Assembly: GCA_003222035.1 (NCBI GenBank)
Contig: QHUS01000052.1
Location: 6,003 to 70,002, forward strand
Source of the DNA: Gemmatimonadota bacterium
GTDB taxonomy: Bacteria; Gemmatimonadota; Gemmatimonadetes; Gemmatimonadales; GWC2-71-9
Direction of reading: 5' to 3'
DNA length: 64,000 nt
The notes beneath the pieces were generated by a model that saw nothing but the letters and a program-made list of their open reading frames with translations, ran no database searches and had not been told where the DNA came from. Of the stretch, positions 6,559 through 49,631 are shown piece after piece (the stretch's first letter is position 1; each line of letters opens with the position of its first letter). Both the position numbers and the translations under genes were made by a program.

Positions 6559-6682
6559 GTGCGTGGTACGTGGTGCGTGGTTGCATGAAGCGTGCGTGGT
6601 GAGTGGTGCGTGGTGCATGAAGCGTGCGTGGTGCGTGGTGCGTGGTTAGCACCGTCGGCAACCACGCACCACGCACCACGCA
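6559..6682. repeat. three tandem ~32-nt units rich in GGTGCGT heptamers; the third unit forms a perfect 23-bp hairpin just after the recG stop
   Basis: Unit copies lie at 6559-6591, 6592-6623 and 6624-6647. Stem 6625-6647 (tgcgtggtgcgtggtgcgtggtt) pairs perfectly with 6660-6682 (aaccacgcaccacgcaccacgca), with a 12-nt loop. Confidence 0.8.
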
Positions 6683-9605: not shown

Positions 9606-11371
9606 TAGGGAAGACCTTGCCGGCGCCGCCACGCCCATTCGGCCGCGAACAGGGCGATCGCGGCGAAGAACAGCCACCACCGCTCCCGCAGCGCCACGCT
9701 CGTGAAGCGATCACCGGAGGCGCCGGTCTGGGCGGCCAGCGTCACCGCGGCAGGCCGCCATTCCTCCGAATAGGTGTCCACGACCACGACGCCGCGCTCC
9801 GGACCGGCGCCGTCCGCGGCCGCGAAGTGGTACACGCCCGGCGGCAGCGCGAGCTCCGCCCGGCCGCCGGCGTCGAACCGCAGTGTATCCACCCGCTGCC
9901 CGCCCTCAGCGGTGAGGGCGACCACGACGTTCCGGGGTGAGCCCGATCCGGCCCATCGCCAAATCATGGGCAACCCGTTCGGAACTTCGTACGTCACCGG
10001 AGCGAACCGTGCCCCGCTCGCCGCTCCCGGGGCGAGGAGCCAGTCGGCCAACGCCGCGATCAGCGCGCGATACGCTTCGCCGCTGGCGCCTCCTCGGAAC
10101 GCCCAGCGATACAGACCGCCGGCGGCGATGATCGCGCGGCGTGCACCAGCCTGGTCGCTGAGCACGATCACGGGCCTGGGTGGGCCGCGTCGCGCCAGGC
10201 GTGCGGTGAGCACCACCGTGCTGGCGCTGTCGGGCCGGAGCTCTGCGAGCGAGCTGGCGGGAGGGAGCGAGTCCCAGGCCACCCCGGACAGTGCGGCCGC
10301 GAGTGGCGACGCACCGGGCGCCTGCACGTACCAGTCTCCGTCCTGACGCCGGGCGCTCGACCAGATCAGGGCGGCCCGTCTCGGGGGAAGGCTCACCCGG
10401 CTGAACATCGCCGGGTCGCCGGCTTGGATCACCAGCGCCGCACCCGCCACCGCTCGCGCTACGTCGCCCTGCGTCCGACCTTCGAGCGTCGCTCCGTCGC
10501 GCCAACCGCTTCCGGGGGTGGCGATACCGGTCTGCACGAACGTGCGCACCGGCACGCGGGCCACCTCCTCGAGCGTGTGCGCGAGAAACCGCGTCTCCCA
10601 ATCCGGCGGCGCCGCCAACAGCACGACCGATGGCTGCGGACTCACGTCGAGCACGAAGAGCCGGGCGTCGTCGCGCGGTTCGGAATCGCCGGCTACGCCT
10701 TCCAGTCGCACCTCGAGCGCGGACCAACCGGGCCGCAGGACGAGGGACGGGGGAAGGGTGATGTCGGTGGACACGATTCCGCTGTCGGGCAACGACACGG
10801 CTCGGGTCGCGAGCCGGCGACCCGCCGCACTGACCGCGAGCGCCGCCGTACCCGCCCCCCGTCCCCCGTCCCGCGTCCCCGCCGTCCCGTAGCTCACCCT
10901 GAGGCGTATCGTGTCGCCCCCACTGACTCGTCTGGGTCCCTCGACGTCGGATACAAAGGCGTCAAAGAACGGCGCGCGGGGCAGCACGATGATGCGCGCC
11001 CGGCGCAACAGGTCGGGTGGCAGGTCGGCCCGATCCGTTATGGCACCGTCGGTCACCACCGCGATGGGTCCGCCGCGCCCGGCCGCGGCGTCGAGGGCCG
11101 GCGCGAGACGGCTCGAGCCGTCCGTGGGTGGGACGGTGTCGAACGCCGCGACGCGGTCCCCGAATCGCCAGATCACGCCGCCGCGCGCGAGGGCGCGGGC
11201 CGTGTCGCGGGCTCCGCGCCAGCTGCCGCCATGGCCCGCCATGCTCAGCGACGCGTCGAGCAGCACCAGCGACTCCCCTCCCGCCGCGACGCTCGAAGTG
11301 CTGGGGTTCCACAGCAGGAGGACGAGTGCCGCCAGGGCGCCGACGCGAAGCGCGGCGAGGCCGGCCGTCAC
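9605..11371 (-). CDS. membrane-anchored VWA-domain protein (BatA/BatB-like architecture)
   Basis: N-terminal TM (LAALRVGALAALVLLLW), a DxSxS MIDAS motif (LLDASLSM), and a C-terminal TM (WWLFFAAIALFAAEWAWRRR). The start GTG 11369-11371 overlaps the hisA stop (GTGA). The longer ORF to 11947 is an overlap artefact. Confidence 0.65.
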   Translation of the reverse strand: MTAGLAALRVGALAALVLLLWNPSTSSVAAGGESLVLLDASLSMAGHGGSWRGARDTARALARGGVIWRFGDRVAAFDTVPPTDGSSRLAPALDAAAGRGGPIAVVTDGAITDRADLPPDLLRRARIIVLPRAPFFDAFVSDVEGPRRVSGGDTIRLRVSYGTAGTRDGGRGAGTAALAVSAAGRRLATRAVSLPDSGIVSTDITLPPSLVLRPGWSALEVRLEGVAGDSEPRDDARLFVLDVSPQPSVVLLAAPPDWETRFLAHTLEEVARVPVRTFVQTGIATPGSGWRDGATLEGRTQGDVARAVAGAALVIQAGDPAMFSRVSLPPRRAALIWSSARRQDGDWYVQAPGASPLAAALSGVAWDSLPPASSLAELRPDSASTVVLTARLARRGPPRPVIVLSDQAGARRAIIAAGGLYRWAFRGGASGEAYRALIAALADWLLAPGAASGARFAPVTYEVPNGLPMIWRWAGSGSPRNVVVALTAEGGQRVDTLRFDAGGRAELALPPGVYHFAAADGAGPERGVVVVDTYSEEWRPAAVTLAAQTGASGDRFTSVALRERWWLFFAAIALFAAEWAWRRRQGLP

Positions 11372-17996: not shown

Positions 17997-18012
17997 AGAG
18001 AGCACGACCAAA

Positions 18013-19101
18013 TCACGCGACTAGTGTCAAAATCCTCGACACGATCTCCCGGGCCGCGTTCGGGTGCCCGCGAGCCTTCGCCCGAGCCCCGAGTGAGTCG
18101 AGTTGGCTGCGGTCGGCGAGCAGGCTGGTGACCTGTTCGGCGAGTGTGAACGGTGAGAGGTGCTCTTCGGAGAGCTGGATGGCGGCGCCGACGGCTGCCA
18201 GGGCGCTCGCGTTGCGGGTCTGGTGGTCGGCCGCGGCGGTGGGAAGCGGCACGAGGATGCTCGGTTTCCCCCAGGCGCACAGCTCGGCGACGGTCATCGC
18301 GCCGGCGCGCGACACTACGAGGTCGGCGGCGCGGTATGGCGGCGCCATCGGGTCGAAGAATCCGCGGACCACCACGCGCCCTGGGACCGCGTAGCGCGCG
18401 AGCGCCGCGGCGTGCGCGGAGCCCGTGCCCCACAGCACGTTGACCGCCTCGAGCAGGCGGCGCTCGAGTGCACCCGCGACGGCGTAATTGATCCGGCGCG
18501 CGCCCTGGCTGCCGCCGAACACGAGCAGTGTGGGACGCGTGGGGAGCAGCCCGAGCTCGGCGAGGGCGGCGTCGCGCGGTCCCGGCTCCGGCACGCGGAT
18601 CGGATTGCCGAGCGCGAACACGGCCGTGTGCGAACCGAGGCGCAGTCGCTCTTGGGCCTCGGGAAAGCCGAGATGCACCTGCCGCGCGCCGTGCGCGAGC
18701 CAGCGCGTCGTGAGTCCGGGGAACGCGTTCTGCTCCTGGAGGACCGTCGGGAGCCGGCGGCGCTGGGCGCGCCACAACACGGGGCCTGCCGCGTACCCAC
18801 CCGTGCCGATCACGATGGCCGGTCGCTCGGCATCGAGCACGCGTCCCACAGCGCGCCAGGCACGTCCGAGGATCAGTGGCCAACGCACGTTCTTCCACCA
18901 GGTGTGCCGGTAGATCGGTTCGATCGGGAGGAGGTGATGGCGGAACGGATAGCGGGGCAGCACGTCCACCTCGATGCCCCGCTGGGCGCCGACCAGGACG
19001 GGCTCGATCCCCCGCCTCGCCTCCTGCAGGGCCTGAGCCAATGCGAGGGCGGGCATGAGGTGGCCGCCGGTGCCGCCGCCCGCGAGGAGAACTCTCATCA
19101 C
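18013..19101 (-). CDS. murG: undecaprenyldiphospho-muramoylpentapeptide beta-N-acetylglucosaminyltransferase
   Basis: MRVLLAGGGTGGHLMPALALA.., GT28 family. The start is GTG 19101 or ATG 19098. Confidence 0.95.
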   Translation of the reverse strand: MMRVLLAGGGTGGHLMPALALAQALQEARRGIEPVLVGAQRGIEVDVLPRYPFRHHLLPIEPIYRHTWWKNVRWPLILGRAWRAVGRVLDAERPAIVIGTGGYAAGPVLWRAQRRRLPTVLQEQNAFPGLTTRWLAHGARQVHLGFPEAQERLRLGSHTAVFALGNPIRVPEPGPRDAALAELGLLPTRPTLLVFGGSQGARRINYAVAGALERRLLEAVNVLWGTGSAHAAALARYAVPGRVVVRGFFDPMAPPYRAADLVVSRAGAMTVAELCAWGKPSILVPLPTAAADHQTRNASALAAVGAAIQLSEEHLSPFTLAEQVTSLLADRSQLDSLGARAKARGHPNAAREIVSRILTLVA

Positions 19102-19108
19102 AGTTCAG

Positions 19109-19227
19109 ATTGCGGATTGTGGATTGCGGATTGCTGATTCGAAGGGGCCAGTTCGATGTGCGATGCCGGGCACACGCCTCGACGAGCGCTCGGTGCAATC
19201 CGCATTCCGAAATCCGCAATCCGCAAT
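19109..19227. repeat. long imperfect hairpin built from ATTGCGG / CCGCAAT heptamer repeats, filling the ftsW-murG intergenic gap
   Basis: Arm 19109-19134 (attgcggattgtggattgcggattgc) pairs with 19202-19227 for 26 positions, with 2 mismatches and 1 G-U. The central region is about 67 nt. Confidence 0.75.
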
Positions 19228-19228
19228 G

Positions 19229-20344
19229 TCATGCTCCCGCGTTCCGCCGCCCTCTCCCAATGCTGATCAACACGCCCGTCGCCACTAGGGCCACGAACAG
19301 GCTCGACCGCCCGTACGAGATGAAGGGCAGCGTGATGCCGGTGGCGGGAAGGAGCGCGAGGGTCACGCCCACGTGCAGCACGACCGTGATTCCGATCATC
19401 GCGGTGAGCCCGACGGCGAGCAGTCGGCCGAACGGATCGCTCGACGAGGTCGCGATGCGGAAGCCGAGCCAGACGAACGTGCCGAACAGAACGAGGATCG
19501 CGAACACGCCGACGAACCCCCACTCCTCGCCGATCGTGGAGAAAATGAAATCCGAATAGGCATATGGCAGGTAGCCGAGCTTCTGCTGCCCCTGCCCCAA
19601 CCCGACGCCGAACAGACGGCCCGCGCCGAGGCCGACGAGCGACTGATGGACCTGCCACGTGGCCTCAGCGGGCGCGCTCCCGGGATTCAGGAACGTCACG
19701 ACGCGCGCGAGGCGGTACTGTGCGCTCGCGACCGCACCGAACAGAATCGGCGTCGCCACCAGCCCGACGGCGAGGAAATGGCCGATGCGCGCGCCGGCGG
19801 TGAACAGCACCACGCCCGCCAGCGCCGTGACCAGCACCGCCTGGGAGAGGTTCGGCTCGAGGAAGATCAGCCCGACGAGCGGCCCGAGCACGACGATGAA
19901 CGGCAGCACGCCGTACTGGAACGTGCGGATGCGCTCGCCTTTCTTCGCCGCGAGCATCGCGGTCCACACGACGACGGCGAACTTCGCGAGCTCGGACGGC
20001 TGCACCGTCACGAATCCGAGATTCACCCAGCGCCTGGCGCCGTTGATGCCCGGCGCGATGGCGTAGGTGAACGGGAGGAGCGGGAGCAGCAGCAGCACCC
20101 CGACGACCGCGAGCACCGGCCACGCCCAGCGGCGCCACTTGTGGTAGTCCGAGCGCGCGAGTAGCGCGGCGACGATCCCCCCGACGGCGGCACCGAGAGC
20201 CTGCTTCAGAGCGAAGCTCGAGCCGACTTGCCCGCCCGAGATCGTCAGCAAACTCGACGCGCCGTAAACGGCGGTGAGCCCGAACACGACCAAGATCGCC
20301 GCGACGAGCGCGAGCAGACGCGTCTCCCAACGGGCGTCTCTCAC
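19229..20344 (-). CDS. ftsW: SEDS peptidoglycan polymerase FtsW
   Basis: 371-aa multi-TM SEDS protein (..QPSELAKFAVVVW.., YAYSDFIFSTIGEEWGF) in the canonical dcw position. Confidence 0.92.
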   Translation of the reverse strand: MRDARWETRLLALVAAILVVFGLTAVYGASSLLTISGGQVGSSFALKQALGAAVGGIVAALLARSDYHKWRRWAWPVLAVVGVLLLLPLLPFTYAIAPGINGARRWVNLGFVTVQPSELAKFAVVVWTAMLAAKKGERIRTFQYGVLPFIVVLGPLVGLIFLEPNLSQAVLVTALAGVVLFTAGARIGHFLAVGLVATPILFGAVASAQYRLARVVTFLNPGSAPAEATWQVHQSLVGLGAGRLFGVGLGQGQQKLGYLPYAYSDFIFSTIGEEWGFVGVFAILVLFGTFVWLGFRIATSSSDPFGRLLAVGLTAMIGITVVLHVGVTLALLPATGITLPFISYGRSSLFVALVATGVLISIGRGRRNAGA

Positions 20345-20444
20345 GCGGAGTCGCGGCTCAAGCCGCCGCTCGGCCGTGCCGCTGAAGCGGCTTGTCGCCC
20401 GTTCACGGGCAGATGCCGAGCCGCGTGTTTCCTCGCGCCCGTGC

Positions 20445-21657
20445 TCACATTCCCTCCACTAACTTGCGGAAGGTACTACCGCGCTCTTCATAGTTTTTGA
20501 ACATGTCGTAGCTCGAGCACGCGGGAGACAGCAGGACCGCGTCGCCCGGCCGCGCGGCCCGGCGCGCCCGGGCGACGACGTCCGCGAACGTCGTGCCGCG
20601 CTCGAGCGCCACCTTCCCCTTCAGGTCGCGCTCGATCAGGTCACCCGACTCGCCGTAGGCAATCACGAGGCGGCACCGCTGCTCCAGCAGCGGCGCCAGG
20701 CGGGTGTACGGCTCTCCTTTGTGCCGGCCGCCGAGCATCAACACGAACGGCCGATCCATCGCCTCGATCGCCACGACGGTCGGGAGTCACGCCCGCCTCG
20801 CGGACCGCGAGGGCGGCCGCCAGCGCATTGGCGACGTTGTGGTCGCCCAGCAGACGCAGCTCGTCGCGCGCGAGCAGGGCGTCGTCGCCGAGGTGCAGCC
20901 GGCGCGCGGATGCGTCGTACCATCCGTCCGCCCGGCGCCGCAGGGCGAACAGCACGCGGCGACCCGGCGCCTGGCCGGCGAGATCGAGCACGGGTGGCTC
21001 GTCCCCGTTCAGCACCCAGACGTCCCCCGCGCGCGCGTTCCGGAAGAGCAGCTGCTTGTCGGCGTAGTACGCCTCGACGGTGGGATAACGATCCAGGTGA
21101 TCGGGAGCGAGGTTCGTGACGATGCCGATCTCGGGAGCGAAATGGGGGCTGTCGTGCAGCTGGAACGACGACACCTCGATCGCCAGCCACTGGTAGCGAT
21201 CGCCGCTCAGCGCGATGTCCGCGAGCGGCCGCCCGATATTTCCGGCCGCCTCGGCGCGCAGCCCCGCGCCGCGCAACAGGTGCGCCACCAGTGCGGTGGT
21301 CGTCGTCTTGCCGTTCGTGCCCGTGATGGCGATGCCATGCGTGCCTGCGGCGGCCAACGCGCGGAAGCCGAGGTCGATCTCGGACAGGATCGGGACCCGC
21401 GCTTCGCGTGCGGCGGCGAGCGGTGGCGCCTCCGGCGGCACGCCCGGGGAGACGATCACCGCCGCGGCCGAGCGTATCCGCGCCAGGTCGTGTCGCCCGA
21501 CGTCCAGCGCCACGCCGTCGAGCGACTGGAGGGCGGCGAGCGCCTCGGCGCCGTAGGGATGGTCGGACGCGTCGCTCGCGTATACCGGCACGCCCTCGCG
21601 CGCGAGCAGCCGCGTGGCCGCCACGCCGCTCTTCCCCAGCCCCACCACGGCCACCAC
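20445..21657 (-). pseudogene. murD: UDP-N-acetylmuramoylalanine--D-glutamate ligase, disrupted (internal ~39-aa deletion plus frameshift) as sequenced
   Basis: One frame encodes the N-terminal and central domains (VVAVVGLGKSG..ITGTNGKTTTT..LLGDHNVANALAAALAVREAGVTPD), down to about 20779. A different frame (20445-20783) encodes ..TVVAIEAMDRPFVLMLGGRHKGEPY..LLSPACSSYDMFKNYEERG. The conserved block between them (GLPHRxE...NDSKATN) is missing. Confidence 0.75.
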
Positions 21658-21680
21658 GCCGCGGCGCCAGGTCGCGGGGA

Positions 21681-22802
21681 TCAGCGCACCTTCAACGTCG
21701 CCAGCGCGATCGCTGCGCACAGCACCCCCAGGATGTAGAACCGCGTCACCACCTGCGGCTCCGCCCAACCGAGTTTCTCGAAATGGTGGTGGAGCGGAGC
21801 CATGCGAAACACGCGGTGGGCGTCGGCGTACTCTTTGCCGCGCCGCCGCTTGTGCCACCGGTACACCCACACCTGGAGCATGACCGACACGGCCTCGGCC
21901 GCGAACACGCCGCCGGCGATCAACAAGAGGAATTCGGCCTTGAGCATGATCGCAACCGCGCCGAGCGCGCCGCCGATCGCGAGCGAGCCGGTGTCCCCCA
22001 TGAACACCTGCGCTGGATGGGCGTTGAACCACAGAAAGCCGAGAGCAGCGCCGGCGAGCGCCCCGCAAAAGATCGTCATCTCTTGCGCGCCGGGCAGGAA
22101 GTACACCAGCAGGTAGCGCGTCCAGTCGATCCGGCCGAACACGTACGCGAAGGCCGCGAAGGAGCCGGCGAGGATCGCCGTCAACCCGGCCGCGAGACCA
22201 TCCAGTCCGTCGGTCAGATTCACGGCGTTCGACGTGCCTGTGACGACCAGCGTGACGAACGCCACGTACAAGACCGGCGGCATGACCAACAGGGTGTACT
22301 TGAACAGCGGTACCTGTGTCGACGCCGGCGGCAGATCCGGCGCGAGGGGCCAGTACAGCAACGTCACCCCCAACGCGATGCCGAAGGAGACCTGACCGAT
22401 CAACTTCCAGCGGGCGACCAACCCCTGGGATTTGCTGCGGACGATCTTCAGGTAGTCGTCGATGAAGCCGATCGTCCCCGCCCACAGCATAGCGAGCACT
22501 GCGACGACCACGTACCGGCTGTCGAGCCGCGCCCACAAGAGCGTCGGGATGACCGTGGCCATCAGGATGATGAGCCCGCCCATCGTAGGCGTGCCGCGCT
22601 TGGTCTGGTGGCTGGCCGGCCCCTCGGCGCGGATCACCTGCCCGACGTTGCGCGCCCGCAGCCAGCGAATGACGGCAGGGCCGCACAGGAAGGCGAGCAG
22701 CAGGGCGGTCACGACGGCGCCCGCCGCGCGGAACGTCAGATAGTTGAACAGGTTGAAAAAGATGTGCTGCTTCGCGAGCGGCGCGAGCAGGTGATAGAGC
22801 AC
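21681..22802 (-). CDS. mraY: phospho-N-acetylmuramoyl-pentapeptide transferase
   Basis: MLYHLLAPL..KRGTPTMGGLIIL..NAVNLTDGLDGLA.. Confidence 0.96.
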   Translation of the reverse strand: MLYHLLAPLAKQHIFFNLFNYLTFRAAGAVVTALLLAFLCGPAVIRWLRARNVGQVIRAEGPASHQTKRGTPTMGGLIILMATVIPTLLWARLDSRYVVVAVLAMLWAGTIGFIDDYLKIVRSKSQGLVARWKLIGQVSFGIALGVTLLYWPLAPDLPPASTQVPLFKYTLLVMPPVLYVAFVTLVVTGTSNAVNLTDGLDGLAAGLTAILAGSFAAFAYVFGRIDWTRYLLVYFLPGAQEMTIFCGALAGAALGFLWFNAHPAQVFMGDTGSLAIGGALGAVAIMLKAEFLLLIAGGVFAAEAVSVMLQVWVYRWHKRRRGKEYADAHRVFRMAPLHHHFEKLGWAEPQVVTRFYILGVLCAAIALATLKVR

Positions 22803-22811
22803 GTGTGGTCC

Positions 22812-24158
22812 TCAGTTCAGGTGCCGCAACACTCGCTCGAGCGCCACCCCGCGAGACGCTTTGAGCAGGACGATCTCGTTGCCCGTGAGCACCCCCCGGA
22901 GCCGCGGGCCGAGCGCCTCCGCGTCGGGCGCCGTGAGCAGCCGGTTCCCGAGCGCCGCACGATGCGGCTCGAACGCGGGCACGAACTCTCCCACCGCCCC
23001 TACGAGCGCCGGGGGGGGAGCGAGCGCCGCGATTTCCGCCGCCGCGACCGCATGCAATCTCGCACTCTCGGGCCCGAGCTCCAACATCGAGCCGACGACC
23101 ACCGCGAGGGGGCGCCGTCGCCGGTCGGCGAGCCAGTGCGCGAACTTCACCGCCCAGTGGAGCGAGCCCGGGTTCGCGTTGTAGGTATCGTCGATCACCG
23201 TGAGGCCGCCGAGGGAAAGAACGGCGCCGCGACCCGCCGGGATGTGCACGTCGGCGAGCGCGGCGACGGCGCGCCCCGGGTCGGCGCCGGCGTGGCTCCC
23301 CACCGCGAGGGCCAGCATCGCATTCTCGATCTGGTGGAACCCGGCCAGCGGCAGGGTCACCGAGTGCCCCCGCCACGTGAGGTGGGCGTGCCCGGCGTCG
23401 TCCAGGTCGGCCGCGTCGGGACGCACGTCCGCCGCCGGGCCGGTGCCGGCGACGACGGTCGGCGCACGACGCCGCGCCTCCGCCGCCAGCGCCGGCGGGT
23501 CGGTCCCCACGACCGCCAGCCGCGCACCCTCCGTGAGCGACACCTTCTCCTGCATCACCCCGGCGAGCGACCCGAAGCCCTCCACGTGCGCGTACCCGAC
23601 ATTCGTGATCACCGCGATGGTGGGTTCGATGATCTCGCGCAGCCGGGGGATCTCTCCCGGGACGCTCGCGCCCGCCTCCACGACGAGCGCGTCGGCGTCA
23701 TCTGACGCTCCGAGGATGGTAAGCGGCACACCGATCAGGTTGTTCAGGTTCCCAGTCGTGGCATGCACCCGGTACGTCGTGGTGAGCACCGCCCGGATCA
23801 TCTCGCGGGTGCTGGTCTTCCCGCTCGAGCCCGTGACCGCGACCACCGGACTGCCGGCCGGCAAAAGCCGGCGCCGCGCGCGCGCCAGCAGACCGAGGGC
23901 GACGAGCGTGTCCGGGACCTCGAAGGCCGGCAGGCCGTCGAGGGATGGAGTGCCGCGCCGCACGACGGCAGCCGCCGCGCCCTTGGCCTTCGCCTGGTCG
24001 AGGAACGCATGGGCGTCGAAGCGATCGCCTTTGAGGGCGACGAACAAGGTGCCAGGTGTCAGGTGTCGGGTGTCGGTGCCCACCCCGGTGAAGCGCAGGC
24101 CGCGGGGCCCCGACACCCCCAAGACGCTCGCGACCCACGCCGAGTCCCAGGCGGTCAC
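22812..24158 (-). CDS. murF: UDP-N-acetylmuramoyl-tripeptide--D-alanyl-D-alanine ligase
   Basis: GTDTRHLTPGTLFVALKGDRFDAHAF, VTGSSGKTSTREM. The start is trimmed to GTG 24156-24158, because the longer ORF translates the heptamer repeat element. Confidence 0.9.
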   Translation of the reverse strand: MTAWDSAWVASVLGVSGPRGLRFTGVGTDTRHLTPGTLFVALKGDRFDAHAFLDQAKAKGAAAAVVRRGTPSLDGLPAFEVPDTLVALGLLARARRRLLPAGSPVVAVTGSSGKTSTREMIRAVLTTTYRVHATTGNLNNLIGVPLTILGASDDADALVVEAGASVPGEIPRLREIIEPTIAVITNVGYAHVEGFGSLAGVMQEKVSLTEGARLAVVGTDPPALAAEARRRAPTVVAGTGPAADVRPDAADLDDAGHAHLTWRGHSVTLPLAGFHQIENAMLALAVGSHAGADPGRAVAALADVHIPAGRGAVLSLGGLTVIDDTYNANPGSLHWAVKFAHWLADRRRRPLAVVVGSMLELGPESARLHAVAAAEIAALAPPPALVGAVGEFVPAFEPHRAALGNRLLTAPDAEALGPRLRGVLTGNEIVLLKASRGVALERVLRHLN

Positions 24159-24170
24159 CCCACCACCCCG

Positions 24171-24272
24171 ATTGTGGATTGCGGAGTGCGGAATGCGGAT
24201 TTGAAATGAAAGGTCGGTCGCCGACCGACTCCTCCCTGGATATTCCGCAATCCGCAATCCGCAATCCGCAAT
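24171..24272. repeat. second ATTGCGG / CCGCAAT heptamer-repeat hairpin, filling the murE-murF intergenic gap
   Basis: 24171-24201 pairs with 24242-24272 for 31 positions, with 3 mismatches and 1 G-U. The 40-nt loop holds a nested perfect palindrome gtcggtcgCcgaccgac (24213-24229). Confidence 0.8.
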
Positions 24273-24276
24273 TGCT

Positions 24277-25731
24277 TCATGACGCCCCCAGCTCCCGCAC
24301 GATCACGCGCTCGTCGAACGGCTGCTTTTCGGTTCCCACCACCTGGTAGGTCTCGTGCCCCTTCCCGGCCAGGAGGATCGTGTCACCCGTGCGCGCCTGC
24401 TCGAGCGCGTACGCGATGGCGCGCCGCCGGTCGACCTCGCGATGGTGCCCCTTCCCCCGCATCCCGCCCTCGACCTCGTCGAGGATTCGTTCGGGGTCCT
24501 CGGTGCGCGGATTGTCCGAGGTGACGATCGCCAGGTCCGCCAGGCGTGCGCCCACCTCACCCATGGGCGCCCGCTTGCCGCGGTCCCGATCGCCGCCGGC
24601 GCCGAACACCACGATGAGGCGTCCCGTGGTCAAGGGGCGCAACGTCTCGAGCGCCCGCTCCAGCGCATCGGGCGTGTGGGCGTAGTCGCGCAACACCATG
24701 CAGGGACGTTCGGCGATCCGCTCCATGCGGCCGGGGACCTGCGGTGCGCGCGTGAGGGACTGGGCCACGGTTTCAACGGGCACGCCGAGCCCCCAGGCGC
24801 ACGCCGCCACGCCGAGCGCGTTGACGACGTTGAACCGGCCGAGCAGCGGCAGCCGCACGTCCGCGCGTCCCGTGGGCGTGACGAGCTCGAAGCCGGCACC
24901 CGCGGCGGTGAGCGTTAGGCGCCGCGCCGTCACCTCGCCGCCGCGCTCGCCGAACGTCACGCGGCGATGCTCGCGGCGCAGGCGTTGCCACGCGGGATCG
25001 TCGGCGTTCACCACCTCGAGCCCGTCGGGCGCGAGATAGCCCACGAGCTTGGCCTTGGCGCGAAAGTAGTCGTCGAGCGTCTTGTGATAATCGAGGTGGT
25101 CTCGCGTCAGGTTGGTGAATACGCCTGCCCGGAACACGAGACCGTCGACACGTCCCTGGTCGAGGCTGTGGGAGGACACCTCCATGGCGACCGCGCGCGC
25201 GCCCCGGGCGACCAGGGCGGCCAGGGTCGCCTGGAGATCGATCGGACCGGGCGTCGTGAGGTTGCCCGCTTCGCTCTCCACCGTCGCGCCTTCCTGATCG
25301 AACGCGCCCAGCGTGCCGATGGAGCCCGTCGGCTCGAGCACCGACAGGACGTGGCGGAGCAGCGTGACCGTCGTGGTCTTGCCGTTAGTGCCCGTGACGC
25401 CCACCAGCTCGAGCTTCGCGGCGGGCCGATCGTACCAGGCCTCCGCCGCCGCGGCGGCCGCGCGCCGGCCGTCGCGCACCATCACCTGCGGCAGCTCCGC
25501 CGCTTGCTCGCGCTCGACCAGGGCCGCCGCCGCGCCCCGCTCGCGCGCGGCCGCGACGAACGCGTGCCCGTCCTGGACCGCGCCCCGGATCGCGCAATAC
25601 AGCATCCCGGGCGTCACCCGGCGGCTATCGGCCGTGAGGCCCGTGAGTTCGGGCCAGGTGTGCAGGTCCGGAGTTTCGACGAGGAGTTGCGCACGCTCGA
25701 GCGCGGTCACCACTCGCTCGAGGCTGGTCAT
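24277..25731 (-). CDS. murE: UDP-N-acetylmuramoyl-L-alanyl-D-glutamate--2,6-diaminopimelate ligase
   Basis: LTADSRRVTPGMLYCAIRG, VTGTNGKTTT, DNPRTEDP. The start ATG 25729-25731 overlaps the ftsI stop (ATGA). Confidence 0.93.
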   Translation of the reverse strand: MTSLERVVTALERAQLLVETPDLHTWPELTGLTADSRRVTPGMLYCAIRGAVQDGHAFVAAARERGAAAALVEREQAAELPQVMVRDGRRAAAAAAEAWYDRPAAKLELVGVTGTNGKTTTVTLLRHVLSVLEPTGSIGTLGAFDQEGATVESEAGNLTTPGPIDLQATLAALVARGARAVAMEVSSHSLDQGRVDGLVFRAGVFTNLTRDHLDYHKTLDDYFRAKAKLVGYLAPDGLEVVNADDPAWQRLRREHRRVTFGERGGEVTARRLTLTAAGAGFELVTPTGRADVRLPLLGRFNVVNALGVAACAWGLGVPVETVAQSLTRAPQVPGRMERIAERPCMVLRDYAHTPDALERALETLRPLTTGRLIVVFGAGGDRDRGKRAPMGEVGARLADLAIVTSDNPRTEDPERILDEVEGGMRGKGHHREVDRRRAIAYALEQARTGDTILLAGKGHETYQVVGTEKQPFDERVIVRELGAS

Positions 25732-27722
25732 CGCGAGGGTCCTTTTCCCCGGCGCGGCGTGGCAGGAACGCGCGGCGGCGCGTCGGCACGCCGGCCCGGT
25801 TCGGCCCACAGCGTCACGATGGAGCCGAACGCGGCACTATCGCCGGCCGCGGGCCAGGTGTGCTCCGCCACGCCCCAGCCGCGGAGGGCCACGCGGAATC
25901 CGCGCCGATGCAGCGTGCGGGCGGCTTCGCGCATGCCGACGCCCGTCACGTCGGGGACGGCCAGGCGCGGCGCGGTGCCGGCGCTGTCGGGCCGATACGG
26001 CCAGGGCACCACGTAGGGCACGAGGCCGCCGTCGTCTTCCGCGCGCGTCGCGACCGCGCGCGGCGCGGCGGTCGAGAGCCGGGCGCGGTCGAGCGCCACG
26101 GTGCGGGCCGACAGAGCCTGCTCGAGCATCGACCGCGTCACCGGCGCCGCCGTCTGTGCCGCGAAGTAGCTCCCCTTGTGCGGATTGTCGATTTTCACGA
26201 CGAGCACGAGCTGCGGCCGATCGGCGGGGAACAGCGCGGCGAACGACGCGGTGTACTCGCCCGCCGCATAGCGGCCGTTCACGACGCGACGCGCGGTCCC
26301 GGTCTTCGCTGCCACCGGAAAATTCGTGAGGGCCGCCTCGGTGCCGGTGCCGCGCTCCACGACGCCGCGCAACAGCTGCCGCAGTGTCGCCGCCACCTCC
26401 CGCGACACGACCTGCCGCACCGGCTCGGGACGATGCCGGTACCCCACGCCCAGCGGGGCCCGTGCGTTCCGTACCTCGCGGATCAGCGTCGGCTGCAGCA
26501 GCAGCCCGTCGTTCGCCAGCGCCCCATACGCCACCGCGATCTGGATCGGTGTGACCGAAAGCTCGTAGCCCATCGCGAGGCTCGCTGCGCTCGGTCGCGT
26601 CCACTCGGAGGGTGGGCGCAGGCGGCCGGTGGCCTCGGCCGGAAAGTCGATCCCGGTGTACGCGCCGAACCCGAAGTCCCGGAGCATGGCGTACTGCTCG
26701 GCGGGCGTGAGCCGCGCTGCGAACTTGGCGATTGCGATGTTGCTCGAGACACGGATCGCGTCGGCCAGCGTCAGCGTGGGCTGTGGATCGTCGTCGGTGA
26801 TGGTGCGGCCCAGCACCCGCCACTTGCCTCCCTCCCCCGACACGCGATTCGTGGGTGACACGCGGCTCAACGACAGCAGGGCGGCGGCCGCGAAGATCTT
26901 GGCGAGGGACCCCGGTTCGAAGGTGTCGGTGAACGCGCTGGGGCGGGCGCCGCCGTCCCGCTGCCGGGTCGCGAGCGCCAAGACCTCGCCCGTCCCGGGA
27001 TCGAGCATCACGACGTCACCGCCATCCGCGTCCATGCGGCGCAACGCGTCGTCCAACGCCCGCTGCGCGATCTCCTGCAGCTCCGCGTCGAGCGTGAGCA
27101 CGACGTCGAGCCCCGGCACGGGCGGCGCGATCACGCGCGCCGGTGATTCGTACTCCCGTCCCGCGCGATCCTTCAGGACCACCGCCGCGCCAGCCCGGCC
27201 CACCAGCAGCGTATCGAGGGCTTTCTCGAGGCCCGACGCTCCCTGGCCGTCGTCGGCGAGCCGGCCGATGGTGGCGCGCGCCATGCCGGGATCGGGATAA
27301 AACCGGTTGAGAACGGGCTCGAGGTGAACGCCGCGCAGGTTGCGCAGCGCCTGCACCTCGAGCGCGCTGTAGGGGCCCGCAAAGTATGCGTACCGCCGCC
27401 GCACCGCCTCTTGCCAAGTGCGCGCCGACAGGCCGAGACGCCGGCTGATCAAGGCGCCGTCGGCCGGCGGGTCGCGCAACTCGTTGGGCGCGACGCCGAC
27501 GTGATAAGTCTCCTGCGTGACGGCGAGCGGTGTACCGTGCCGGTCGAACAGCGTGCCGCGACGCGCCGGAAGCACGATCCGCTCGGTACGCTGCGCCTGC
27601 GCCTCTTCCGCCCAGCGGCGGCCCTGGAGGATCTGCACCTGGACGGCGCGGCAAACGAGGAGACCCAGACAGGCGAGCACCCCGAGTTGGACGACCTGGA
27701 TCCGGACCGCGGGCTTCGCCAT
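25728..27722 (-). CDS. ftsI: penicillin-binding protein 3-type transpeptidase
   Basis: N-terminal TM (VVQLGVLACLGLLV), a PBP dimerisation domain, a transpeptidase domain (FEPGSLAKIF matches the SxxK region; KTGTA) and a PASTA-like tail. The start is ATG 27720-27722. Confidence 0.9.
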   Translation of the reverse strand: MAKPAVRIQVVQLGVLACLGLLVCRAVQVQILQGRRWAEEAQAQRTERIVLPARRGTLFDRHGTPLAVTQETYHVGVAPNELRDPPADGALISRRLGLSARTWQEAVRRRYAYFAGPYSALEVQALRNLRGVHLEPVLNRFYPDPGMARATIGRLADDGQGASGLEKALDTLLVGRAGAAVVLKDRAGREYESPARVIAPPVPGLDVVLTLDAELQEIAQRALDDALRRMDADGGDVVMLDPGTGEVLALATRQRDGGARPSAFTDTFEPGSLAKIFAAAALLSLSRVSPTNRVSGEGGKWRVLGRTITDDDPQPTLTLADAIRVSSNIAIAKFAARLTPAEQYAMLRDFGFGAYTGIDFPAEATGRLRPPSEWTRPSAASLAMGYELSVTPIQIAVAYGALANDGLLLQPTLIREVRNARAPLGVGYRHRPEPVRQVVSREVAATLRQLLRGVVERGTGTEAALTNFPVAAKTGTARRVVNGRYAAGEYTASFAALFPADRPQLVLVVKIDNPHKGSYFAAQTAAPVTRSMLEQALSARTVALDRARLSTAAPRAVATRAEDDGGLVPYVVPWPYRPDSAGTAPRLAVPDVTGVGMREAARTLHRRGFRVALRGWGVAEHTWPAAGDSAAFGSIVTLWAEPGRRADAPPRVPATPRRGKGPSR

Positions 27723-49058: not shown

Positions 49059-49631
49059 CTAGGAAGACAGAATGGGGGTTAGCAGCGCGTCGGTATCGAG
49101 AACCACGAAGAGTTGACCGGCGCGGCGCCCGACGGCCCGCACTAGCGTCGGATCGATGCCGGGCAGTGCCTGCCGGCGTTCCAGCGCCTCTCCACCCACC
49201 GAGAGGAGGTCCACGACCTCATCGACCGTGAAACCGAGGACCTTTTTGCCCCCGTCCAGCTCGAGCAACACCGTCGTCCCCGCCACGTCTCCCCCTTCTC
49301 CTCCCACCCTCTCTCCCCCTCCACCCGCCCCGCCACCGGTCATGGGGTCTGAGGCGGGGGCAGGAGCAGGGGCAGGGCTTGGGGCGGACCCGGAAGCGGG
49401 GGCGGGGGGGAGGGGGGGGGCGGGGGCGGCCTGACGCAACGCCCGCCATCCCTCCACCACCGTCACGAGGGTGCCCCGCACGTTCACAATTCCTGCCACG
49501 ACTGGGGGCGCCCCGGGGATCCGGGTCGGCTCCAGCCGCGGCAGGATTTCACGGACCCGCTCTGCCTCGGTGGCGCAGAGGAGGTTGCCCACCCGAAACA
49601 GCAGCAGTCGGACGACCCCCGCGTCACTCAT
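49059..49631 (-). CDS. CheW-like protein with a ~50-aa Pro/Ala/Gly low-complexity insert
   Basis: LLLFRVGNLLCATEAERVREIL..VAGIVNVRGTLVTVV..LGFTVDEVVDLL, with the insert APAPPLPPAPASGSAPSPAPAPAPAS..GGGAGGGGERVGGEGGD. The start ATG 49629-49631 overlaps the rluD end. Confidence 0.8.
   Translation of the reverse strand: MSDAGVVRLLLFRVGNLLCATEAERVREILPRLEPTRIPGAPPVVAGIVNVRGTLVTVVEGWRALRQAAPAPPLPPAPASGSAPSPAPAPAPASDPMTGGGAGGGGERVGGEGGDVAGTTVLLELDGGKKVLGFTVDEVVDLLSVGGEALERRQALPGIDPTLVRAVGRRAGQLFVVLDTDALLTPILSS

Follow-up and report, generated by a model that had tools for sequence, protein, structure and literature searches.

The murE-murF hairpin of a Gemmatimonadota bacterium: a probable gene-less member of a dispersed palindrome family with tandem-heptamer arms

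The hairpin that separates murE from murF in the Gemmatimonadota genome studied here probably belongs, as a copy that lacks a gene, to a family of dispersed palindromes in which cassettes carrying a PF05635 gene represent the full-length members, and we interpret it as a tolerated selfish or neutral insert rather than as a regulator of murE or murF. The window, i.e., the whole stretch of DNA that was analysed, comprises 64,000 nucleotides of contig QHUS01000052.1. The genome (designated G000; 3.58 Mb, 68% G+C, 130 contigs, 94% complete) is syntenic with Gemmatimonadetes MAGs at 73-79% nucleotide identity.

The dcw genes of the window lie on the minus strand in the order rsmH, PBP, murE, murF, mraY, murD, ftsW (19229-20344) and murG (18013-19098). 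The Mur ligase gene murE (24277-25809, minus; Pfam Mur_ligase_M/C/N and the ORF list) ends with a TGA at 24279-24277, and the A that precedes it creates an ATGA, in which a start codon lies over the stop. Gene murF (22812-24158, minus) begins with the GTG at 24158-24156, a start chosen from the N-terminus MTAWDSAW...GTDTRHLTPG. The spacer between the two genes measures 118 nt, and on the mRNA strand the hairpin begins 4 nt past the murE stop and ends 12 nt ahead of the murF GTG. Its 5' arm on that strand (24244-24272, minus) is G-rich and consists of a perfect (ATTGCGG)x4, as seen in the sequence and by the repeat finder, and its 3' arm (24171-24199, minus) is C-rich and forms a mosaic of ATT, AGT and AAT unit variants. 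Read on the plus strand, the 24171-24199 arm is composed of ATTGTGG, ATTGCGG, AGTGCGG, AATGCGG and a final A, and the 24244-24272 arm of four TCCGCAA units and a T. The arms are 29 nt each and 90% complementary, with three non-Watson-Crick positions, one of which is a G.T on the plus strand; the stem is 29-31 bp long, the two heptamer arrays count 4.1 and 3.4 copies, and pairings of the arms shifted in register by 7 nt in either direction are possible as well. The 44-nt loop (24200-24243, minus), which is orthologous across the genus under any arm type, holds an inner palindrome of 8 bp (GTCGGTCG-C-CGACCGAC, 24213-24229) and a GGGAGGAG stretch. The murF GTG is preceded by a Shine-Dalgarno-like G-rich stretch, CGGGGTGGTGGG (24159-24170, minus), and the motif GGGGYGGGGYG is conserved at this position in all alleles that carry the hairpin. 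Within murF itself, an AGGTGTC heptamer run of 4.7 copies (24047-24078) codes for the conserved TDTRHLTPG motif; one hairpin family and a PF05635 cassette on contig C68 likewise have GGTGTC units, possibly by coincidence.

Sequence, repeat finder and gene borders thus agree with the original prediction of an intercistronic, 118-nt tandem-heptamer inverted repeat in the dcw operon whose loop has a palindrome of its own, except that the loop had been given as 40 nt. The prediction had also placed the same build, with different units, at three other loci of the window. The build does recur, at four loci: 2664-2760 (10-mers resembling GGTAGAGGTC), 6559-6682 (GTGCGTG units), 10729-10880 (GGGACGG units) and 19108-19227 (minus), the last of which lies between ftsW and murG and carries the same ATTGCGG unit. 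The congener sites orthologous to the first three elements carry other units (AACGCGG, CGGGAAA). The window also contains, at 49288-49429, a C-rich and then G-rich low-complexity run (TCTCCCCC... / GCGGGG x5.7) that lacks the arrangement of a unit-repeat hairpin.

The hairpin belongs to a genome-wide class, in keeping with the earlier suggestion of a generative process rather than a single conserved motif. Tandem Repeats Finder was run on the whole genome and its arrays were paired with reverse-complement arrays, which yielded at least 109 paired elements of the form array, loop, reverse array. Medians for the heptamer arms are 4.3 copies and 30 nt, and the loops, with a median of 23 nt, are unrelated between loci (54% baseline identity). 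Some 35 unit classes occur in the genome, with at least 20 unrelated unit families side by side: AACGCGG is the commonest (37 elements), ATTGCGG accounts for about eight, and further units include GGTGTCR, GTGCGTG, 8-mers such as GTCGGACG and several 10-mers. Same-unit pairs at short range are convergent in 49 cases vs. divergent in three. In the ATTGCGG family the phase is fixed at both the outer and the inner arm borders, i.e., (G)ATTGCGG x4 ATT(G). When the elements were tabulated against the genes, 46 of the 65 measurable edges fell at -3 to +10 nt from a stop codon. About 80 solo arrays, similar in size to the arms, are also present in the genome and show no strand preference relative to genes genome-wide. 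Same-unit elements were not neighbours in excess (4 of 37 observed vs. 4.7 expected, in a permutation test of low power).

The arm sequence is shared well beyond this phylum. A scan of one genome per species with the pattern (GCGGAWY)3GCGG matched at least 120 contigs, and the reversed-pattern control gave no matches. Arms of the GCGGA-NN type, 31-33 nt long, occur in more than ten phyla; the taxa among the matches listed include Acidobacteriota, Verrucomicrobiota, Planctomycetota, Gemmatimonadota, Bacteroidota, Chloroflexota, Actinomycetota, Binatia, Omnitrophota, Armatimonadota and proteobacteria. The matched contigs repeat the same build, with a 31-33-nt arm, a variable loop and a reverse arm, the G-rich arm coming first. 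Exact matches number 107 in one acidobacterial genome and 25 in an Ignavibacteria genome, and in an unbiased 400-kb sample of the Ignavibacteria genome 20 of the 23 heptamer arrays had a GCGGA-type unit. A literature search found no paper on the arm sequence itself.

Action at the DNA level was also considered; one could view the paired arrays as a strand-symmetric module bound by a host nucleoid or topology factor, or as a cruciform or G-quadruplex. The G-rich arm is indeed 5' on either strand in 105 of the 109 elements, solo arrays of equal length exist, the GCGGA core is conserved across phyla, and the analogous Xanthomonas repeat forms G4 structures in vitro (Rehm et al. 2015, PMC4692102). 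The units here, however, carry only GG tracts and fall into at least 20 unrelated families within one genome; the elements hug stop codons rather than being spaced along the chromosome; three congeners have no arrays at all, and no candidate host factor is known. We therefore consider a structural or binding site of the host unlikely.

The interpretation of the hairpin as an inserted copy is best examined in the genus, where both states of the site can be compared. Among 25 congeners, 13 carry a murE-murF hairpin (114-130 nt) and 12 have no spacer, the murE stop overlapping the murF start (tcGTGAcc), in line with the earlier statement that the spacer is short in ordinary dcw clusters. Other genera of the family and order likewise have an overlap or a few bases at this junction; given these genera and the empty congeners, the empty site is ancestral. 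Soil metagenome contigs supplied a further 32 empty and 25 filled alleles. Two conspecific strains, with MurF proteins 99% identical, have a spacer 100% identical to that of the window. The 4-nt GTGA-type junction (NTGA) is present at both ends of the insert. The G-rich stretch before the murF start was also compared with the 3' end of murE for a long target-site duplication, and the two resemble each other only loosely.

All filled alleles align colinearly and their loops are homologous, with 68% identity vs. 54% for unrelated loops. Their arms vary by genome, with ATTGCGG, AATGCGG, AGTGCGG or AACGCGG as the unit, and double compensatory changes are found at 9 of the 31 stem pairs, in every case at one of the unit's two variable positions. 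On the MurF tree, arm types are patchily distributed, as are the filled and empty states (the sister species G016 and G002, for example, have AGT and ATT arms, respectively), which implies either exchange of alleles or precise loss, more than once, at the duplicated GTGA. The element is 92-96% identical in G000 and G004, compared to about 82% for the flanking genes, a difference that could mean function.

Several alleles at this junction take other forms. One metagenome locus (L287, Ga0079222_10000135) has half an element of 55 nt, consisting of the G-rich arm alone (AGT/AAT units) and the G-rich stretch before the start. In other lineages (L317, L326, L327, L297 and G030, the last being L055) solo 8-mer arrays, (GTCGGACA)x4 or (GGGCGGAC)x4.5, directly follow the overlapping start in frame with murF and form N-terminal extensions of its product. 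The murE-murF junction is one that has been struck repeatedly across lineages.

The type of arm is a property of the genome more than of the locus. Arrays of the AAC type predominate in G023 (141 AAC, 0 ATT, 3 AGT) and G025 (137, 7 and 0, in the same order), those of the ATT type in G001 (6, 139 and 4) and G002 (0, 35 and 7), and those of the AGT type in G010 (4, 0 and 46), while G000 has 53 AAC, 27 ATT and no AGT arrays. In 9 of 12 genomes the murE-murF arm type is the top type of the genome, and it is never a type absent from that genome; genomes predicted to be AGT-rich from their AGT-type site proved to be so. At ftsW-murG, 5 kb from this site, the hairpin has an orthologous loop of its own and agrees in arm type with the murE-murF hairpin in 6 of 7 genomes. 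A mixed, alternating order of AAT and AGT units is common to the arrays at dozens of loci in G021, and higher-order arm sequence is thus copied between loci in that genome. Since the arm type tracks the genome and the loops stay, the arms appear to be overwritten in place by copying between loci.

How an insert of this size is accommodated between two coupled genes may be explained by its reading frame. The base before the murE stop retains the ancestral overlapping start codon in the form of ATGA, and the frame that begins there is open through the whole hairpin and ends on a TGA overlapping the murF GTG. The resulting bridging ORF (24155-24280, minus; ATG over the murE stop to TGA over the murF GTG) has 41 codons and encodes MKQLRIADCGLRNIQGGVGRRPTFHFKSAFRTPQSTIGVVG. 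It is kept in 19 of 21 unique murE-murF alleles, with spacers of 55, 118, 121 and 130 nt, and is broken only in two alleles of 114 nt; the half element of L287 is also still in frame. A similar ORF of 44 codons spans the ftsW-murG hairpin (19098-19232, minus) and ends on the TGATG at the murG start. There, 7 of 8 alleles keep the bridging ORF in seven different lengths, and in empty alleles ftsW overlaps murG (ATGA in G008 and G018). Across the genome, the upstream stop is overlain by a start codon at 32 of 56 co-directional elements, and the frame starting on this NTGA spans the element in 26 of the 32 cases, vs. a baseline of about 56% open for all frames. We estimate P ~0.002 for the keeping of the frame, counting independent length changes. 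Open frames arise easily, because the heptamer arms lack stop codons in all frames, and the rule was not seen in small samples (400 kb) of two other genomes, one from an acidobacterium and one from Ignavibacteria. The P value makes a coupling relay suggestive, though not proven: judged from the sequence, ribosomes passing along the bridging ORF would keep murE and murF translationally coupled.

A strong and conserved fold in an essential operon also invites the interpretation of a dedicated cis-acting RNA element, one that would stabilise the murE message, attenuate read-through or set the murE:murF ratio. Both strands fold far more stably than shuffled sequence (mRNA strand, -61.7 kcal/mol, z -6.6; plus strand, -63.7 kcal/mol, z -7.6), and none of 200 shuffles folds as well. 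The stem covaries, the element is identical in conspecific strains and, when G000 is compared with G004, better conserved than the coding DNA on either side, and the same operon holds a second hairpin between ftsW and murG. Against such a role, the element is absent, with a perfect GTGA overlap, from about half of the genus and from most metagenome relatives; the sequence of its arms is of the type prevailing in the genome rather than one peculiar to the locus; and more than 100 look-alike elements adjoin unrelated genes. The sense strand has no surplus of G.U pairs (36 vs. 48), and an Rfam scan of positions 18000-26000 at E<=1 gave no match. Partial termination, one of the functions proposed originally, disagrees with the sequence that follows the stem on the mRNA strand, which is CGGGGUGGUGGGGUG and contains no U-tract as an intrinsic terminator would. 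A locus-specific regulatory role for the hairpin is not supported, and nothing points to the hairpin serving specifically to stabilise, terminate or process the mRNA; we regard an RNA element of the dcw operon as distinctly unlikely.

Dispersal in high copy number with phase-fixed arm ends and a 4-nt NTGA at both ends of the insert would also suit a REP/REPIN or a MITE moved by a transposase in trans, either of the RAYT type (Y1) or another. Y1 transposases occur in 19 of 28 congeners and are absent from the array-free ones. Nevertheless, G000, G004 and G002 have no Y1 transposase (PF01797 was not found in G000) yet contain 27-92 arrays, and the Y1 genes of the congeners are flanked by a different, classical REP, CCCGGGCTTGCGCCCGGG, with a GCGGANN array in 0 of 20 Y1 loci. 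Y1/RAYT was accordingly rejected as the partner of the arrays: its presence correlates with theirs across the genus, but its genes are framed by classical REPs and not by heptamer arrays. The loops of the copies are unrelated, so that no internal sequence is conserved as in a MITE; each keeps its position from species to species; no long form carrying a transposase was found; and only the 4-nt NTGA is duplicated, as selection would require on its own. A transposase-driven REP or MITE is improbable on this evidence. The REP CCCGGGCTTGCGCCCGGG itself frames RAYT-type Y1 genes in six congener loci (L337, L338, L340, L342, L345 and L347), and it gives 21 pattern hits in G000, which has no Y1 gene (both strands, up to two mismatches; the palindrome may be counted twice).

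A purely local genesis, in which each hairpin grows in place by replication slippage and by template switching at quasi-palindromes and loci do not copy one another, is favoured by the tandem units, the register-shifted pairings, the mosaic arms and the fact that no other long simple repeat is as common in bacteria as the heptamer, but it is highly improbable given that a 31-33-nt arm with equal phase at both borders recurs at many loci in many phyla and that genome-wide type switching and the shared mixed-unit orders of G021 need inter-locus copying. An array writer resembling a reverse transcriptase or telomerase was also considered and rejected, RVT_1 being present in just 3 of 28 congeners and absent from G000.

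The reading of the hairpin as a gene-less copy draws on the cassettes that share its arms. These enclose ORFs of family PF05635, the 23S rRNA intervening-sequence protein (S23p), an Avd-like four-helix bundle. At least six array-armed cassettes are present in G000; four were scanned against Pfam, and in each the enclosed ORF matches PF05635. The four have four different arm units. One of the cassettes, at C128:70073-70517, is armed with ATTGCGG like the murE-murF hairpin (ATTGCGG x4.6, 381 nt, AATCCGC x4.6) and encloses a PF05635 ORF at 70110-70484, of which G025 has an AAC-type orthologue; the arms of the others (GGTGTCG, GGTGCGT, TAGAGGTCG and 10-mers) are likewise units of gene-less families. 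Gene-less hairpins that match a cassette unit number 10 for GGTGTCG, 9 for GGTGCGT and 8 for ATTGCGG. The cassettes of G000 are 445-627 nt long, with arms of 24-92 nt, most of them about 30 nt.

The association extends through the genus. Copies of PF05635 number 2-13 in 25 congeners, and the family is missing from exactly the three congeners that are free of GCGGANN arrays (G017, G012 and G026). Inverted arrays enclose 18 of the best 30 PF05635 loci and, among the 22 orthologues of the protein from the ATTGCGG cassette, 16. The identity of the cassette proteins averages 77% within an arm type vs. 54% between types, and in the sisters G016 and G002 the proteins are 62% identical and the arms differ; such co-variation of protein and arm could be due to physical linkage alone. 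AACGCGG, the commonest type in G000, has no cognate cassette in the G000 assembly, and no GCGGA-type cassette was found in the array-rich genomes G023, G010 and G014. The murE-murF copy encloses no PF05635 ORF in its 44-nt loop and is at most a gene-less derivative of a PF05635 cassette. In a further congener locus (L354, G015:C201), a PF05635 gene lies within GGGATTC arrays, a close variant of the GGGAATC repeat of Xanthomonas.

As a tentative generalisation, which we hold to be possible but by no means established, PF05635 proteins may be sequence-specific partners of heptamer arrays, and gene and arms together may constitute an unrecognised class of mobile cassette, whose gene-less progeny would occupy operon stop/start junctions in more than ten phyla and have their arms rewritten to the type of the resident cassette. 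Such a class would unite the 23S intervening sequences (IVSs), the STRR, the GGGAATC repeats and the hairpins described here.

For the murE-murF hairpin as a gene-less family member, the following course of events may be envisaged. The arms of the family are arrays of about 31 nt, with 4-4.5 tandem heptamers, its IVS-like full-length members enclosing a PF05635 gene. The copy occupies what used to be an overlapping junction of murE stop and murF start (GTGA), and some half of the species in the genus have inherited it, their loops being homologous. Correction of one arm by the other within the hairpin, together with copying between loci, would keep the arms alike; the copying may be ectopic gene conversion, or a process in which the cognate PF05635 cassette serves as master. 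The insert would be tolerated in an essential coupled operon on account of being stop-free: ribosomes finishing murE would restart immediately at the ATG and unfold the hairpin on their way to the murF start, where they would terminate and initiate once more. In RNA that is not translated, by analogy with the 23S rRNA IVSs, a stem of 29-31 bp would be a likely RNase III site, and processing of the hairpin by RNase III is plausible on that analogy; a search of the 94%-complete G000 with PF14622 found no RNase III domain of that family.

The locus can be viewed as a natural experiment, offering an empty ancestral site, an orthologous loop with genome-matched arms and a candidate partner gene in like arms, and the bridging ORF suggests a way for a palindrome of 100 nt to persist inside an essential, translationally coupled operon. 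The origin and role of heptamer repeats (STRR, the Xanthomonas repeats, TAACTGA) have been in question since the 1990s. Like REP/REPIN-RAYT systems, the elements described here are short extragenic palindromes, with at least 100 copies in this genome, located just past stops and vertically stable, and a protein gene is framed by cognate repeats; unlike in those systems, the framed gene belongs to PF05635 and not to Y1, the RAYTs of the genus frame another REP, the arms are tandem repeats and the loops are variable. The TAACTGA heptamer of Beggiatoaceae, cyanobacteria and Bacteroidetes occurs as 2-6 direct repeats at gene junctions, with a patchy cross-phylum distribution that suggests horizontal spread by no known mechanism (MacGregor 2015, PMC4679880). 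It resembles the present arms in being one heptamer repeated at gene junctions and patchy across phyla, but its repeats are direct and almost never inverted pairs, lie upstream of starts and contain stops in all frames.

The convergent heptamer pairs of Xanthomonas (GGGAATC) and Nostoc (GGGGAYT / STRR) have about four units, are mostly intergenic and number 70-75 pairs per genome; they can form stem-loops, and their position is conserved between species, whereas their length varies and their role is unknown (Rehm et al. 2015, PMC4692102). As in those pairs, about four tandem 7-nt units form adjacent, convergent arrays on opposite strands here. Unlike them, ATTGCGG has only GG and no GGG quadruplex tracts, at least 20 unit families coexist in one genome, with a unit common to several phyla, and the elements stand out by their bridging ORFs, by the switching of units at the level of whole genomes and by their association with PF05635 cassettes. 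In Coxiella burnetii, the 23S IVS in helix 45 is 428-444 nt long, has a terminal stem of 28 bp and an S23p/PF05635 ORF, is cut by RNase III and is deemed selfish (Warrier et al. 2016, PMC4990558). The 29-31-bp stem of the murE-murF hairpin and the 445-627-nt cassettes of G000 around PF05635 ORFs are close to these dimensions; the murE-murF copy, on the other hand, is gene-less, has arms of tandem heptamers and is located in an mRNA spacer rather than in rRNA. Among published elements, the Xanthomonas convergent heptamer repeats and the ORF-bearing 23S IVSs come closest. As far as the searchable literature shows, the link between these two kinds, the bridging ORF, the occurrence of one unit in many phyla and the rewriting of arms on the scale of the genome are new.
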